NCBI GenBank assembly: GCA_052389555.1 | Contig: JBQTHV010000109.1 | Coordinates: forward strand, 3,262 to 67,261 | Reading direction: 5' to 3' | From: Gemmatimonadales bacterium | Lineage (GTDB): Bacteria > Gemmatimonadota > Gemmatimonadetes > Gemmatimonadales > GWC2-71-9 | Length of the DNA: 64,000 nucleotides | Shown: positions 6,110 through 62,982 of the stretch, one piece after another | Numbering within the stretch: the first letter of the stretch is position 1 | How the letters are laid out: each line of letters starts with the position of its first letter | Made by a program: the position numbers and the translations under genes | The notes under the pieces: model-generated | What the model was told of the DNA's origin: nothing | The model's database searches: none | Seen by the model: only the letters and a program-made list of their open reading frames with translations

Positions 6110-7323
6110 GGGTCGCCGGCTTCACGTCGACCGGCAGTAAGCGACCCGAACCGCTTTTCGGTGAGGGCCCCCTGCCCCCAGGAATCCCGACCCGGATGGC
6201 CAGGAGCGGCGGCTGCCGGCTTTGGGACGGGGAAAGCCGCGAGTATCTCGATATGATCATGGGACTCGGGGCGGTGGCCCTCGGCTACGGCCATCCCGCC
6301 GTGACGGCGGCCGTCATCGAAGCTACCCACAGAGGGGCGGTAGGCTCCCTGGCGCCGGCTCTGGAAGAGGAGCTCGCCGGTGACCTCGCCGGGCTCCTCC
6401 CGGTGATGGAGCAAGTCCGGTTCTTCAAGACCGGAGCGGAGGCCGTCGCGGCGGCGGTGCGGCTGGCCCGGGCGGCCACCGGACGGGAGCGCGTGTTAGG
6501 ATGCGGCTATCACGGATGGCTGGACTGGTGCAGCCGGGAGCCCGGCGTTCCCGCGGCGGTTCAGGCGCTCTACCAGGAGCTGCCGTTCAACGATGTCGAG
6601 GGGAGCGTCGGCCTGATCCGGCAATCCAGGGGCGACCTGGCCGCGGTGGTCATCGAGCCGGTGATCGATGCGGTACCTAACCCGCAGTGGCTGGCAGCTA
6701 TCCGCCGGGAGAGCCGGACCGCCGGGACCCCGCTCGTGTTCGACGAGATCAAGACCTGGCCTCGGACCGGGCTGGGCGGAGCGGCGGCGCGCTGGGGCGG
6801 CGAACCCGACCTGATCGTCCTCGGCAAGGCCCTCGCCAACGGCTTTCCGCTCGCTGCCGTCGGGGGCCGGCGCGAGCTCATGCAGCAGGTCGAGCGGACC
6901 TGGATCTCCTCGACCCTCGCCACCGAGTTCGTCTCGCTGGCGGCCGGGCGCGCCGTGCTCCAGGTCGTGCGGGAGACCAACCTTCCTGGGTACCTCGCCG
7001 GTCGAGGAGAACGGCTCCACCGAGGGCTCGCGCACATCGCGCAACAGTTCCCCGAGTTCATCGCAGGAGTGAGGGGAATTCCCGAGATGTGCTATCTCCA
7101 GTTCCCCGACCCAACGGTCTCCGCTCACGTCGCGCGGGAATGCGTCCGCCGGGGTGTCCTGTTCAAGCGCTCGGCGTACAACTTCGTCTCCCTCGCCCAC
7201 CAGGACGCTGACGTCGATCTCTGTCTGGACACGGTCGAAGCAGTCCTCGATGCACTTCGGCGCAAGACCGGAGGTCGGGTTTCCCAGCCGACCGCCCGGC
7301 CGCCTGACCGCTTGAACGCCTGA
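6106..7323 (+). CDS. Class III PLP aminotransferase (GSA-aminomutase-like, SpsF/PtmF-associated type)
   Basis: ATGA overlap with the kinase gives the start at 6106. FFKTGAEA, LVFDEIKT, PDLIVLGKALANGFPL. Confidence 0.85.
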   Translation: MRVAGFTSTGSKRPEPLFGEGPLPPGIPTRMARSGGCRLWDGESREYLDMIMGLGAVALGYGHPAVTAAVIEATHRGAVGSLAPALEEELAGDLAGLLPVMEQVRFFKTGAEAVAAAVRLARAATGRERVLGCGYHGWLDWCSREPGVPAAVQALYQELPFNDVEGSVGLIRQSRGDLAAVVIEPVIDAVPNPQWLAAIRRESRTAGTPLVFDEIKTWPRTGLGGAAARWGGEPDLIVLGKALANGFPLAAVGGRRELMQQVERTWISSTLATEFVSLAAGRAVLQVVRETNLPGYLAGRGERLHRGLAHIAQQFPEFIAGVRGIPEMCYLQFPDPTVSAHVARECVRRGVLFKRSAYNFVSLAHQDADVDLCLDTVEAVLDALRRKTGGRVSQPTARPPDRLNA

Positions 7324-7335
7324 CCACCTGACCTC
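7288..7335. repeat. 8-mer tandem array (CTGACCGC-like, 6 units)
   Basis: ccgaccgc ccggccgc ctgaccgc ttgaacgc ctgaccac ctgacctc. Contains the aminotransferase stop and abuts the next GTG. Confidence 0.75.
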
Positions 7336-8142
7336 GTGCTGATCGACGTCCACGCCCACTTCCATCACGCCAAAGGCCCCCGGGCCGACTGGGCCGAGCG
7401 GAACGAGAGCAGACTGCGAGCCGGTGAACGCATCGGTATCACCTGTCACGTGGCGTCCATTCTGGGCAGCTGGGGACGCACCTCCCCGACCTACCTCCCT
7501 TCCCCGACGGACGTGACCGTCGGCAACGACGCGCTGCTCGAGCTCGAGCAAGCTCACCCCGACAGGATCCGTGGCTACGCCTGCGTGAATCCCAACTTCA
7601 CCGATCATGCGCTAGGGGAGATCACCCGGTGCGTCGAGCGAGGCATGATCGGCATCAAGCTCGCGGCGAGCCGCCGCGCCGACGATCCCCTGCTCGATCC
7701 GATTTGCGGAGCGGCACAGCAGGCGCGGGTGCCGGTTCTTCAGCACGTCTGGCAGCACCGCCGGCGGGATTGGCCGGGCCAGGAGGCCTCGGACGCCGTC
7801 GAGCTCGGCCGGCTCGCGAAGCGGCACCCGCAAGTCGCCTTCATCTTGGCGCACCTCGGCGGCGGCGGAGACTGGTTGCACTCGCTCCAGGGGGTCCGAC
7901 CGACCGAAAACGTTTTTGTCGATCTCTCGGGGAGCGGCGTAGATGGTGGGATGCTGGAGGCGTGCCTTGAAGCGGTGGGTGTGAGCCGGCTCCTGTGGGG
8001 CTCGGACATCACGATGGATACCGGGTGGGCCAAGCTCAGGTATCTCGAGCGCATCCTCTCGACTGAGGATCTCGAACGAATTCGGTGGAAGAACGCGGCG
8101 GAGATTTTTCCGGCAGGATGCTTCAGTCAGACTAGAGCTTGA
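7336..8142 (+). CDS. Amidohydrolase family protein (amidohydro_2)
   Basis: IDVHAH metal motif, ILAHLGGG, LLWGSD. Confidence 0.85.
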   Translation: MLIDVHAHFHHAKGPRADWAERNESRLRAGERIGITCHVASILGSWGRTSPTYLPSPTDVTVGNDALLELEQAHPDRIRGYACVNPNFTDHALGEITRCVERGMIGIKLAASRRADDPLLDPICGAAQQARVPVLQHVWQHRRRDWPGQEASDAVELGRLAKRHPQVAFILAHLGGGGDWLHSLQGVRPTENVFVDLSGSGVDGGMLEACLEAVGVSRLLWGSDITMDTGWAKLRYLERILSTEDLERIRWKNAAEIFPAGCFSQTRA

Positions 8143-8236
8143 GCAGCGCGACGACCGTCCCCATGGTGCCCAGCGACCTACCCTTCGCTCGGCGGGGACC
8201 TAACGGCAATAACGCGAGGCCGGAAACGAAAACCGT

Positions 8237-61410: not shown

Positions 61411-62226
61411 TCAGGACTCCGCCACTCGGGACTCGGGATTCGGGACTCGGGATTCGGGAATCTGCCCGGGAACCCCCGAGTGCCGAGTGCCGAGTCCCGA
61501 GTCCCGAGTCCCGACGTGGATCGCACAAATCCCGCCCGCGAGCAGCTCCCAGGTTACCGTGGTAAACCCGGCGGCCCGCATCCGGTGGGCGAGCTCGTCC
61601 GCAGTCGCAAACACGCCGACCGATGCTGGCAGCCACTGATAGGCGTTTCTATGTTTCGAGATCAGCCGTCCGATCCTCGGCAAGAGGTGCCGCAGATACC
61701 AGAGGTACAGGCCGCGGAGCGGGTTATGAGGCGGCGTGCTGAACTCGAGGATGACCAGGCGCGCGCCCGGCTTGAGGACCCGCGCCGCTTCCCGGAGGCC
61801 CGCATCGAGGTCCATCAGGTTCCGGATACCGAAGCCGACGGTCGCCCCATCGAAAACCGCAGGACCGAAGGGGAGCGCCAGGGCATCGCCGTTGGCGGGT
61901 ACCGCCCGGGGGGATTTTCCGCGCCCGCGCACCAGCATCGCCTGCACGAAATCGAGCGCGATCACGCGCCCGCCGAAAGCCGGCCGATTCCCCAGCTCGG
62001 CCGCGAGATCCATCGTGCCGGCGCAGAGATCGAGATACCGCCCGTCGGGTCGCGCTTCCCAGTTGAGCCGATCGATTGCCCGCTTGCGCCAGCGGCGGTC
62101 CAGATTCGCGCTCAGCAGGTGATTCAGCAGGTCGTAGCGCGGCGCGATCGCTCCGAAGATTTCCTGGACATAGGCCCGCTTGGTCACCCCGCCTGTGACC
62201 GGTAAGTCCCGCCCGGTGGCGAACAT
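61411..62226 (-). CDS. ubiE: UbiE/MenG methyltransferase with repeat-derived C-terminal extension
   Basis: F..IAPRYDLLNHLLS, LDLCAGT, FGIRN, LKPGARLVILEFS, YQWLPAS. Confidence 0.92.
   Translation of the reverse strand: MFATGRDLPVTGGVTKRAYVQEIFGAIAPRYDLLNHLLSANLDRRWRKRAIDRLNWEARPDGRYLDLCAGTMDLAAELGNRPAFGGRVIALDFVQAMLVRGRGKSPRAVPANGDALALPFGPAVFDGATVGFGIRNLMDLDAGLREAARVLKPGARLVILEFSTPPHNPLRGLYLWYLRHLLPRIGRLISKHRNAYQWLPASVGVFATADELAHRMRAAGFTTVTWELLAGGICAIHVGTRDSGLGTRHSGVPGQIPESRVPNPESRVAES
61415..61513. repeat. In-CDS inverted 7-mer element (ACTCGGG / CCCGAGT) forming the UbiE C-terminus
   Basis: Encodes GTRDSGLGTRHSGVPGQIPESRVPNPESRVAES. Confidence 0.92.
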
Positions 62227-62270
62227 AGCCGCCGAATGTACCCCGCTCGGAAGCCTCGTCGCAACCTGAG

Positions 62271-62885
62271 ATGAGCGATCCCTCAGGGCCAGTGAATCTC
62301 CAGCACGCGCCCGATCAGGAGATCGTGCGGCTCGCGCGCGAGGGAAGCGAAGCGGCGTACCGCGAGCTGATCCGCCGGTATCAGCGCCCAGTGTTCTCGC
62401 TCATCTATCGCATGGTTCGCGACCGGGAGCTGGCCGAAGACCTGGCGCAGGACACGTTCGTCAAAGTGATCAACGCTCTGAGCAGTTACCGGCCCGAGTT
62501 CAAGTTCTCGTCGTGGGTGTTCAAGATCGCCAACAACGTCGCGATCGATCAGCTGCGCCGCCGCGAGCTCGATACCCTTTCGCTGGAAGGATCACCTCAC
62601 GCGACCACGCAGGATCGGATCGAAGCGACGTCGCTGGAAGTCGCCGAACCGGGGGAAAACGCACTCGACGAGGTGGCGAACCGCGAGCTCGGCGGCACGA
62701 TCGAACGCGCGATCGCGAAGCTGAGGCCCGAATACCGGGCCTGCATTCTGCTGCGCCACGTCGAAGGGAGACCCTACGAGGAGATCGCGGAGATTCTCGA
62801 TCTCCCGTTGGGAACCGTGAAGACCTACATCCACCGCGCGCGACACGAGCTGCGGCGCGTGCTGGAACATCTGCGCAATGAATAG
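62271..62885 (+). CDS. ECF sigma factor (SigW/RpoE-like)
   Basis: DLAQDTF, FSSWVFKIA.N.AID, YEEIAEILDLPLGTVKTYIHRAR. Confidence 0.93.
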   Translation: MSDPSGPVNLQHAPDQEIVRLAREGSEAAYRELIRRYQRPVFSLIYRMVRDRELAEDLAQDTFVKVINALSSYRPEFKFSSWVFKIANNVAIDQLRRRELDTLSLEGSPHATTQDRIEATSLEVAEPGENALDEVANRELGGTIERAIAKLRPEYRACILLRHVEGRPYEEIAEILDLPLGTVKTYIHRARHELRRVLEHLRNE

Positions 62886-62982
62886 CTATTGGCTATTGAT
62901 GGCTATTGGCTATTGGCTATTGGAAACTGCCTTCACCCATAGGGCTGTTTTACCAATAGCCAATGACCAATAGCTAATAGCC
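62884..62982. repeat. Inverted 7-mer arrays (GGCTATT / AATAGCC) between the sigma and anti-sigma genes
   Basis: Inner ends tattggaaactgc .. agggctgttttaccaatagc. Confidence 0.9.

Follow-up and report, generated by a model that had tools for sequence, protein, structure and literature searches.

Tandem heptamer arrays at the gene junctions of a Gemmatimonadales genome: probable gene-less relatives of four-helix-bundle and GxxExxY hairpin cassettes

Introduction

What are the short tandem arrays that recur at the gene junctions of a 64,000-nt stretch of DNA from a Gemmatimonadales bacterium, and by what means may they have spread? This stretch, referred to below as the window, corresponds to positions 3262-67261 of contig C109 in the source genome (G000; 3.2 Mb in 202 contigs, 66.9% G+C, 93.5% complete). 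The arrays consist of head-to-tail copies of 7- to 9-nt units, such as GGCTATT or CCAATAGCC, and many of them face a reverse-complementary array with which they form the two arms of a hairpin. We think it probable that these arrays are gene-less members, amplified lineage by lineage, of heptamer-hairpin (foldback) cassettes of the intervening sequence (IVS) type, which may spread by means of a cognate protein. The design of these cassettes is the same as that of the 23S rRNA IVSs bearing an open reading frame (ORF). Their gene-bearing members carry either an S23p/TIGR02436 gene between arms made of 7/8-mers, or a GxxExxY gene of the PD-(D/E)XK type between arms made of ~9-mers with the core C-R-C-R-G-A. 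The window was compared with related genomes (G001, G005, G015-G018, and others) and with a set of 31 genomes representing the order Gemmatimonadales, including the source genome.

Number and Reality of the Arrays

The arrays were counted using Tandem Repeats Finder (TRF) at periods of 7-9 nt and with at least 3 copies, overlaps being removed. The window carries 47 of these arrays, as compared with a mean of 0.5 in 20 windows simulated with a first-order Markov model, and the whole genome carries 1296. Among the arrays with at least 3.5 copies genome-wide, those of period 7 number 784, followed by periods 8 (309), 9 (87), 6 (60), 11 (3), and 10 (2). In the original prediction, which was based on the letters of the window, the number of arrays had been put at about 30: the arrays are real, including one at every position named there, but this count was too low. 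Being made of head-to-tail units of 5-11 nt, occurring above chance and lying mostly between genes, the window arrays belong to the class of long simple sequence repeats (LSSR) and short tandemly repeated repetitive (STRR) sequences. A scan of the window against Rfam returned a tRNA-Leu only.

The possibility that the arrays were created by the assembly of a short-read metagenome bin has to be considered, since the unitigs obtained from the probable source run (X1) break at arrays. The joints present at these breaks correspond, however, to further copies of the same arm families and not to variants, and every array in the window is spanned by unitigs with zero differences. Arrays of the same kind are also present at syntenic sites in relatives assembled in 5-10 contigs, and the reading frame of the arrays located within conserved genes is preserved. 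We give practically no credence to an artefactual origin.

Hairpin Geometry and Kinship of the Units

A reverse-complementary partner was found within 450 nt of 498 of the 1296 arrays, as compared with 27, 13, and 56 in the control searches for direct, reversed, and complement-only copies, respectively. Once the partners have been merged, 281 hairpin elements are obtained in the genome, and the median length of their spacers is 29 nt. In the window, strict pairing involves 23 of the 47 arrays and yields 12 hairpin elements with spacers of 14-63 nt, in addition to which there are two 9-mer elements, an element with 14-mer units at 33223, and three pairs of a weaker kind; with weaker pairs included, the number of hairpins in the window is put at about 16. 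The inverted geometry, which had been predicted for most of the arrays, is therefore real and concerns roughly half to 60% of them, the rest being solo arrays. When ten window elements were folded as RNA, near-perfect stems of 25-35 bp were obtained (-47 to -99 kcal/mol, z -5.8 to -11.8); the window elements thus share with the cassettes inverted arms forming a stem of at least 25 bp.

The arms have a definite polarity. The 5' arm contains more G than C in 236 out of 280 elements (84%; p 6e-33), and when each unit family is counted once, the ratio between G-rich and other 5' arms is 51 to 14, a strongly C-rich 5' arm being found in no family. The order unit, spacer, reverse-complemented unit is constant in every larger family (GGCTATT is followed by CCAATAG in 59 out of 59 cases), and the few exceptions are families with 2-7 members. 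The units themselves are akin by single substitutions within this one polarity: 36 of the 37 heptamer types have a neighbor differing by one substitution in the same polarity, and the mean distance to the nearest neighbor is 1.03 in the same polarity versus 1.97 in the opposite one and 1.51 ± 0.10 in composition-preserving shuffles. The octamer units show the same single-substitution pattern. The families had been described as unrelated sequences sharing a common architecture; the common architecture is borne out, whereas the heptamer types turn out to form a single-substitution network. The two arms of an element usually have unequal copy numbers, and the phase at which the arrays end is partly fixed in the case of GGCTATT and AGCTATC and dispersed in that of GGTGAGA. 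The G-rich solo arrays are located at a median distance of 3 nt from stop codons, as compared with 34 nt in the case of the C-rich ones, as would be expected if they were halves of hairpins that have decayed.

Association with Four-Helix-Bundle and GxxExxY Genes

The source genome contains six TIGR02436 genes (four-helix-bundle, S23p-type) and two GxxExxY genes (TIGR04256). Inverted or complementary 7/8-mer arrays are present on both sides of five of the six TIGR02436 genes, the arm units being GGCTATT, TAGTGGT, AGCTATC, AGACGGTA, and AGGAGGTAGTAAGC; in the case of the sixth gene, a truncated one, a GGTGGCA array was found on a single side. The window also contains the families GGCTATT, AGCTATC, and that of the 14-mer unit, and AGACGGTA differs by one substitution from the unit AGACGGAC present in the window. 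Both GxxExxY genes lie between 9-mer arms of the CACGGATTA/CAGATTAC type, like those of the window elements at 19292-19430 and 52029-52116, and the first of these two elements is the gene-less form of the arms surrounding both genes. The phased 7-9-nt arms of the window therefore include several gene-flanking families (GGCTATT, AGCTATC, AGGAGGTAGTAAGC, the AGACGG type, and the 9-mer C-R-C-R-G-A). No TIGR02436 or TIGR04256 gene is present in the loops of the window, none of the six plus two genomic matches being located on contig C109, and the window elements are thus gene-less relatives rather than full members of the cassettes.

In the order as a whole, four-helix-bundle genes are present in 28 of the 31 genomes and GxxExxY genes in 20. 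Inverted 7/8-mer arrays were observed at nearly all the four-helix-bundle loci inspected, and most of the GxxExxY loci inspected had inverted arms composed of 8-10-nt units with the core C-R-C-R-G-A. Related loci were then collected across phyla with a 4-sequence alignment as the query, giving 68 four-helix-bundle loci from the Bacteroidota, Acidobacteriota, Planctomycetota, Alpha-, Beta-, and Deltaproteobacteria, Cyanobacteria, Chloroflexota, Nitrospirota, and others. Inverted arms were found at 53 of them (controls: 7 direct, 0 reversed), with a period of almost always 7 and a G-rich 5' arm. After rotation, these units show the consensus Y-R-G at positions 1-3 (T40/C17, A34/G22, and G51 of 57), which amounts to 3.85 bits of information as compared with 3.14 ± 0.12 in shuffled units. 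The units also follow the proteins: protein identity is correlated with unit distance (Spearman -0.15, permutation p 0.002), the mean unit distance is 1.33 between proteins which are at least 70% identical versus 2.93 overall, and some cross-phylum pairs have a common unit, such as a protein from the Terriglobia and one from the Acidimicrobiia which show 69% identity and are both associated with AGGTGTC. The statement that similar arms flank TIGR02436 and GxxExxY genes in other bacteria is confirmed here in the source genome and its order and, in the case of TIGR02436, across phyla. The suggestion that selection acts on the length and geometry of the units rather than on their sequence is at odds with the Y-R-G consensus, the G-rich 5' arm, and the co-variation of unit and protein.

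Turnover at Orthologous Junctions

The congeners, which show ~70% protein identity, are syntenic with the window over 1.8-38 kb. The elements consist of inserted or expanded DNA that is missing at the orthologous junctions of these congeners. Each of the window arrays at 10122, 11191, 14021, 24645, 29313, and 32085 is missing from at least one relative; the convergent genes flanking position 32085 are only 5 nt apart in G018, and G017 has at 14949 a hairpin that is lacking in the window. The array found at the dnaK stop codon is made of a different unit in each of the window, G018, G015, and G016, and there is no array at this place in G017 or G001. Presence/absence polymorphism at orthologous loci, which was to be expected if such elements spread, is therefore abundant.

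Three states of the junction at 29313-29439 were observed: an empty one in G015 (61 nt), one with a gene-less AGGGGCC hairpin in the window, and one in G018 with a four-helix-bundle cassette made of GGCGGACA units, the order of which is array, gene, array, loop, inverted array. In this G018 cassette (L011/L012, relative positions 9230-9800), the gene lies between two direct GGCGGACA arrays and therefore appears to have been inserted into one arm of the hairpin and not into the loop. The CTCGGCA hairpin of the window has a positional counterpart in G017, where the ortholog of gene 24162-24644 is followed by a four-helix-bundle gene with GGAGGTCG arrays; in G015, this junction is empty and measures 37 nt. 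Because of the arm families common to gene-less and gene-bearing copies and the three states of junction 29313-29439, the window elements plausibly, although not more than plausibly, represent the empty form of the cassettes with four-helix-bundle and GxxExxY genes, as had been proposed.

The unit families have been amplified lineage by lineage. Three consecutive copies of GGCTATT were matched 294 times in the source genome, 66 times in G005, 6 times in G002, 3 times in G003, and nowhere in the other 27 genomes. The closest homolog of the GGCTATT-armed protein of the source genome is encoded by gene L047 of G005 (61% identity), the arms of which are made of GGCTATG/GGCTATT. The window carries 7.3 arrays per 10 kb, as compared with 1.0-2.5 in the syntenic regions of the congeners.

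Placement Relative to Genes

Genes were called using a codon log-likelihood caller (2904 genes, 90% coverage), which missed the DUF3175 gene at 52154-52435. In this genome, 90% of which is coding, 790 of the arrays lie between genes and the remaining 506 overlap them. Hairpin elements are found at 18% of the convergent junctions, 7% of the tandem junctions, and 7% of the divergent ones, and their outer edge is located at a median distance of 0 nt from stop codons (51% within 5 nt) and 20 nt from start codons. Several arrays provide the stop codon or the C-terminal tail of a protein (genes 14085-14948 and 61411-62226), and translated in-frame arrays are present in Lon (C16:3645-6272), where the insertion reads GRTDGQTDGRTDGQTD, in DnaE (C129:32398-35679), and in the glycine dehydrogenase GcvP (C17:17186-20020). 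Units containing a stop triplet are rare in genes (4 genic arrays out of 156 in the case of AATAGCC and 3 out of 41 in that of AGCTATC), whereas the arrays of G+C-rich units free of stops lie mostly in genes (AGCCGCCG, 64 out of 79), which suggests that the arrays arise or land anywhere and are then filtered by selection.

The solo arrays show no sense-strand bias (96 vs. 83), and the word present in the loop of the class-1 GGCTATT elements described below is randomly oriented relative to the neighboring gene (17 vs. 18). The elements do not resemble intrinsic terminators, since the 3' arms are followed by coding or non-T sequence, although no systematic scan was made; a T-run was seen only after the inner hairpin of the element at ~18769-18912.

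Spacers, Target Sites, and Candidate Enzymes

Upon clustering the spacers, 194 out of 226 were found to be unique. The recurring ones are the class-1 loop of the GGCTATT elements (~25 copies, 28 nt) and a few small clusters only. The class-1 loop is a small hairpin containing the word CCTAACCCG in either orientation. This 9-mer (CCTAACCCG/CGGGTTAGG) occurs 1607 times in the source genome, where ~40 copies would be expected; among the 127 copies lying between genes, 25 are located in GGCTATT hairpin loops, as at 55567-55594 and 62924-62952 in the window.

No target-site duplications were found beyond chance at the elements of the source genome, the length distribution being equal to that of the shuffled null. 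The profile PF01797, which recognizes the transposases associated with repetitive extragenic palindromic sequences (RAYT; REP), gave no match in this genome, while six control genomes were matched, and no dedicated reverse transcriptase was found there, the sole enzyme of this kind being a group II intron reverse transcriptase/maturase (C10:855-2174, on a 2.9-kb contig). The window elements were therefore not classified as classical MITEs (miniature transposable elements with inverted repeats), as they lack target duplications beyond chance and their interior is not conserved, nor as REP/REPIN elements mobilized by RAYT, as PF01797 has no match in a genome that is 93.5% complete. The non-autonomous spread of the MITE or RAYT type put forward in the original prediction does not agree with this lack of target duplications and of RAYT, nor with the unique spacers.

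RNase III and 23S rRNA

The RNase III profiles TIGR02191 and PF14622 had no match in any of the 31 Gemmatimonadales genomes, while 8-9 control bacteria were matched. In the source genome, tblastn, a signature-motif scan, and phmmer --max on six-frame ORFs also returned nothing (best E 0.044-0.55), the sequence query being E. coli Rnc. Either a true loss in this lineage or a very divergent enzyme could account for this result; if RNase III is really absent, the stems of the source genome are not substrates of this enzyme. The 23S genes of seven relatives measure 2949-2983 nt and are thus too short to harbor an ORF-bearing insert, and the assembly of the source genome contains no 23S gene. The window elements were not assigned to the 23S rRNA IVSs in the strict sense, since they are located between or inside protein genes and RNase III was not detected.

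Individual Elements of the Window

The elements of the window are listed in Table 1. The GGCTATT hairpin at 19603-19717 begins some 5-6 nt downstream of the tRNA-Leu (19515-19597), and at this distance it would belong to the 3' trailer of the tRNA. The DUF3175 gene (52154-52435, plus strand; 93 aa; PF11373, E 2.5e-39) lies between the hairpins at 52029-52116 and 52454-52541. At 55572-55682, a 57-nt unit composed of a spacer and a CCAATAG arm is tandemly doubled (94% match, 1.9 copies by TRF), so that a single left arm opposes two right arms. The hairpin at 61424-61514 encodes a C-terminal tail of ~30 residues beyond the Pfam domain of the UbiE-type protein. The three arrays at 27501-27614 encode the linker joining two domains of the product of gene 27039-29312 (minus strand), a T2SSE ATPase domain (residues 171-552) and a receiver domain (residues 636-747), and this linker cannot be aligned with the orthologs in G015 and G018. 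In the G018 ortholog (L011/L012), the repeat-rich linker contains an in-frame stop, and the T2SSE-receiver fusion may therefore be split there. A further dispersed intergenic repeat, starting with CCTAACCCGCATTTGGAGCTGACGAGG and unrelated to the tandem arrays, was noted at C14:1032, 1753, 4303, 5269, and 6901, at C41:13892 and 14533, and at C67:1062.

Table 1. Arrays and hairpin elements of the window, in order of position.
Position	Element	Units and spacer	Folding	Setting and parallels
7290-7333	solo octamer array	(GACCGCCT)x5.5		overlaps 3' end of gene 6106-7323
10105-10151	solo array	(CACCTCT)x6.7		between two minus-strand genes; not in G017, G018
11173-11277	three abutting solo arrays	CCACTCA, CTCTTAC, TTTCACT		fill divergent junction; not in relatives
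14035-14100	solo array	(GCTACTC)x9.4		gives gene 14085-14948 (minus strand) its stop codon; not in G017
17091-17125	short remnant array	AGGAGGT/AGTAAGT		at dnaK stop codon
18768-18907	octamer hairpin	(AGACGGAC)x4.4, 46-nt spacer, (TCTGTCCG)x7.4	-99.3 kcal/mol, z -11.4	first base is final base of stop codon of gene 17191-18768; spacer has terminator-like inner hairpin, then T-run; G001 has inner hairpin without arrays
19292-19430	9-mer hairpin	(CGGATTACG)x2.7, 89-nt spacer, (AATCCGTGT)x2.9	-78.7 kcal/mol, z -9.7	
19603-19717	hairpin	GGCTATT/CCAATAG, 55-nt spacer	-72.9 kcal/mol, z -11.8	
24648-24736	hairpin	CTCGGCA/CCGAGTA		fills junction of genes 24162-24644 and 24750-25586
26942-27037	two unpaired arrays	(GGCGGTTG)x4.2 and (TCCCGAC)x4.7		one junction
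27501-27614	three in-frame arrays	CTCGGCA, GAGTCGA, TCCCGAT		within gene 27039-29312 (minus strand)
29318-29441	hairpin	AGGGGCC/CCCTGGC, 59-nt spacer	-85.2 kcal/mol	genes 27039-29312 and 29440-31545 on either side
32084-32204	hairpin	GGCTATT x4.3 / CCAATAG x7.3		exact fill between two convergent stop codons
33223-33326	hairpin of 14-nt units	AGGAGGTAGTAAGC	-67 kcal/mol	same arms border truncated four-helix-bundle gene at C15:49351-49569
36605-36675	weak hairpin	(TGAGAGG)x5 against degenerate complementary array ACCGCTC		G018 carries GGTGCTA hairpin at corresponding junction
37559-37695	hairpin	AGTCATC/TGACGAC, 62-nt spacer		right arm runs into start of gene 37690-38853
43945-44104	hairpin	GGGGCCA/CCCCTGG, 63-nt spacer		left arm covers stop of gene 42676-43965
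44938-45021	abutting solo arrays	(TCGGGAG)x6 and (CCAATAG)x4		
51145-51290	array, then array opposite degenerate complementary array	(AATCGGG)x4.7, then (GCGGTCAG)x5.2 opposite GAACGCCC/CCTGACCGC		
52029-52116	9-mer hairpin, gene-less	CAGATTACC...ATCTGCGTA	-47.2 kcal/mol, z -9.3	GxxExxY-type arms
52454-52541	hairpin	TAGCGAG/ACTCGCT, 38-nt spacer		downstream of DUF3175 gene
55502-55681	left arm and two copies of 57-nt unit	GGCTATT x9.3; unit is class-1-like ~27-28-nt spacer plus CCAATAG arm		
57589-57682	hairpin	AGCTATC/CTGATAG		fills junction of two co-directional genes; unit also borders four-helix-bundle gene at C111
59899-59934	solo array	(CTCTCAC)x5.1		junction of genes 59014-59919 and 59923-61410
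61424-61514	hairpin	GGGACTC/CCCGAGT		inside 3' end of UbiE-type methyltransferase gene 61411-62226
62885-62978	hairpin	GGCTATT/CCAATAG, class-1-like spacer		starts on last base of stop codon of gene 62292-62885

Comparison with Known Systems

In the 23S IVS of Coxiella, an S23p ORF is carried by a 28-bp stem, the GACAGAT heptamers vary between strains, and the stem is cleaved by RNase III (PMC4990558). The elements described here resemble the 23S IVSs of Coxiella burnetii, Leptospira, and Salmonella in their long stem formed by terminal inverted repeats, in the tandem heptamers of the arm region (the number of which is strain-variable in Coxiella), and in their loop, which holds either no gene or an S23p gene belonging to the same family as the six genes of the source genome. 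They differ from these IVSs in that those of the window are located at mRNA gene junctions and in protein linkers and not in rRNA, that they are gene-less and present in hundreds per genome, and that RNase III was not detected in the order.

Heptamer repeats have been described in Xanthomonas (GGGAATC, 70-75 convergent pairs) and Nostoc (GGGGAYT) (Rehm et al., 2015, PMC4692102) as well as in the Beggiatoaceae (TAACTGA; PMC4679880). Like these repeats and the cyanobacterial STRR sequences, the window arrays are made of tandem 7-nt units and are mostly intergenic and near gene ends. The similarity to the Xanthomonas repeat extends to the inverted pairs, to the unit GGGAATC itself, which occurs in the window at 51145, and to the presence of an array beside an S23p gene: GGGAATC repeat #15 is placed next to XCC0516 in the supplementary table by Rehm et al. 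(PMC4692102), where no comment is made on this point. The S23p protein XCC0516, the structure of which has been solved (2GSC), matches a four-helix-bundle protein of the source genome with an E value of 8e-20. The published repeats consist of one unit per genome and have been read as G-quadruplex or regulator sites, whereas the source genome has dozens of unit families, 281 hairpins, and in-frame genic copies. The papers on heptamer repeats draw no tie to four-helix-bundle or GxxExxY genes, and a full-text literature search returned no paper joining these genes to genome-wide heptamer hairpins.

In the Ssn/NTS system of Neisseria, a small nuclease gene lies between copies of its own repeat, a repeat that also occurs in hundreds of copies (PMC11893778). 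As in this system and in RAYT/REP-REPIN, the small genes of the source genome are framed by their own repeat, hundreds of gene-less copies of which lie at gene junctions, and the two systems may serve as a working analogy for the way in which four-helix-bundle and GxxExxY proteins read their arms. The folds involved are not the same, Ssn and RAYT being a GIY-YIG protein and a Y1 transposase, respectively, whereas those considered here are a four-helix bundle and, by family assignment, a PD-(D/E)XK fold; in addition, the repeats of Ssn and RAYT are single palindromes and not phased tandem arrays, and no RAYT was found in the source genome. Ogata et al. are said to have described in 2000 the Rickettsia palindromic elements, 100-150 bp in length, which reportedly occur in frame in protein genes and are translated as an extra peptide. 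The genic arrays are likewise palindromic repeats lying in frame within protein-coding genes, but the Rickettsia elements are fixed sequences without arms of tandem units, and we know of no small gene associated with them. The foldback (FB) elements of Drosophila have long inverted termini made of short tandem repeats and a variable or absent center, and some of them bear genes; they are eukaryotic, however, their arms and units are far longer, and they make target duplications, so that no homology is implied.

Origin of the Arrays

If the arrays are indeed amplified gene-less members of foldback cassettes, they would grow and shrink by slippage, and hairpin-templated repair would keep the two arms complementary. 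Their spread would not be classical transposition and would need the recognition in trans of phased Y-R-G-N4 units by a cognate small protein, as in Ssn/NTS and RAYT/REP. In transcripts, the 25-35-bp stems abutting stop codons could insulate and stabilize the 3' ends. In organisms possessing RNase III, these stems would be cut, as in the rRNA IVSs, and if the lack of detection of this enzyme in the order reflects a loss, this may be the reason why such a high density of long stems, even within essential genes, is tolerated.

Several points weigh against this account. Target-site duplications are absent beyond chance, and the 194 unique spacers indicate that the copies were not simply pasted in from a single master element. 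The random orientation of the loop word and the unbiased solo arrays argue against a strand-specific RNA role, which is thus unlikely. Only six four-helix-bundle genes and two GxxExxY genes are available for 66 unit families, and this 93.5%-complete assembly contains no cognate gene for GGTGAGA, which ranks second in size among the families (35 elements). To our knowledge, no biochemical function has been established for the four-helix-bundle protein. The co-variation of unit and protein could partly be due to vertical co-inheritance, and the RNase III part of the IVS precedent probably does not apply here. Lastly, movement was never caught directly, the nearest genomes being only ~70% identical in protein.

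The arrays might alternatively be ordinary long simple sequence repeats (SSRs) generated in situ by polymerase slippage with a preference for ~7 nt, in which case selection favoring stable stems at the ends of genes or palindrome correction would have made the partner array and the small genes would be passengers. Heptamers are the commonest long SSR class in many bacteria (Mrazek, 2007, cited in PMC4679880), and the unequal copy numbers of the two arms, the four different units present in four species at the dnaK stop codon, the unique spacers, one of which is a pre-existing terminator hairpin, and the absence of target duplications are all in keeping with this explanation. We nevertheless judge it unlikely, since one unit in one polarity occurs at 66 loci of the source genome and is missing from 27 of the 30 relatives, ~25 GGCTATT elements also have a common 28-nt loop, the cross-phylum four-helix-bundle genes mostly lie between such arms (53 out of 68) with a unit that tracks the protein, and the G-richness of the 5' arm, which is universal, is left unexplained by slippage alone. 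These arms have a different meaning if the repeats were synthesized, as the original prediction also put forward, by template-directed extension of both 3' ends, an Avd-like four-helix-bundle protein serving as the cofactor of a polymerase or reverse transcriptase: the G-rich 5' array present on either strand (236/280) would then look as if both 3' ends had gained the same G-rich repeat, and the lack of target duplications, the unique spacers between common arms, and the constant period combined with a variable sequence would be accounted for. Avd, which acts together with the reverse transcriptase of diversity-generating retroelements, belongs to the four-helix-bundle family, and this also speaks for the scheme. 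On the other hand, the sole reverse transcriptase is the group II intron maturase on its 2.9-kb contig, no template RNA was identified, arms placed around a pre-existing terminator or gene would require two coordinated breaks, and the polarity could equally well have been inherited from a common G-rich ancestor unit; we regard repeat synthesis of this kind as quite improbable.

The hundreds of intergenic palindromic copies, their presence/absence polymorphism, and their in-frame genic insertions, which recall the Rickettsia elements, are what might be expected of classical non-autonomous mobile elements, either REP/REPIN moved by RAYT or MITEs moved by a DDE transposase. This reading can be given very little weight, however, given that the Y1/RAYT profile found no match in the source genome while recognizing six control genomes, that the target-duplication lengths equal the null, that the interior is not conserved, and that the arms are tandem arrays of variable copy number and not fixed termini. 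It seems very unlikely, too, that the arrays are self-DNA marks for uptake or recombination, the small proteins cutting or binding single-stranded repeats during transformation. The precedent set by Ssn, in which a small nuclease gene is framed by its own abundant repeat (PMC11893778), the nuclease fold of GxxExxY by family assignment, and the presence of the hyper-abundant word CCTAACCCG in ~25 GGCTATT loops point in this direction, but this word is mostly located outside the hairpins and there is no evidence of competence or nuclease activity. We also know of no nuclease motif in the four-helix-bundle protein.

The cassette account that we favor has a more speculative extension, which we hold to be rather unlikely as formulated: the four-helix-bundle (S23p/Avd-like) and GxxExxY proteins would be sequence-specific readers driving the copying or writing of the arrays, and the loss of RNase III would have led to their runaway expansion. 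There would be two parallel classes of hairpins, with periods of 7-8 and ~9, the arrays of which would be copied or written at gene ends. This might be done by extending both 3' ends at a break in a template-directed manner, and the universal G-rich 5' arm, the lack of target duplications, and the uniqueness of the spacers would then be accounted for. RNase III loss in the Gemmatimonadales would lift the cost of long double-stranded RNA stems, resulting in one array per 2.5 kb, with some arrays within essential genes.

Significance

Heptamer repeats (STRR, GGGAATC, TAACTGA) have been catalogued for decades without any origin being given to them, and the 23S intervening sequences and the S23p/four-helix-bundle family have likewise been left without an assigned function. 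The source genome unites these three strands, as it contains phased-repeat hairpins with and without a small gene, with units that track the protein across phyla and families that amplify by lineage. The idea that a pentameric four-helix-bundle protein or a GxxExxY protein with a nuclease fold may bind or cut its own units and thus drive their spread can now be put to the test. In practical terms, these elements fragment short-read assemblies, and they supply stop codons, C-terminal tails, and translated linkers to core enzymes. If it is confirmed, the absence of RNase III throughout an order with unusually many long stems would be a finding in its own right.

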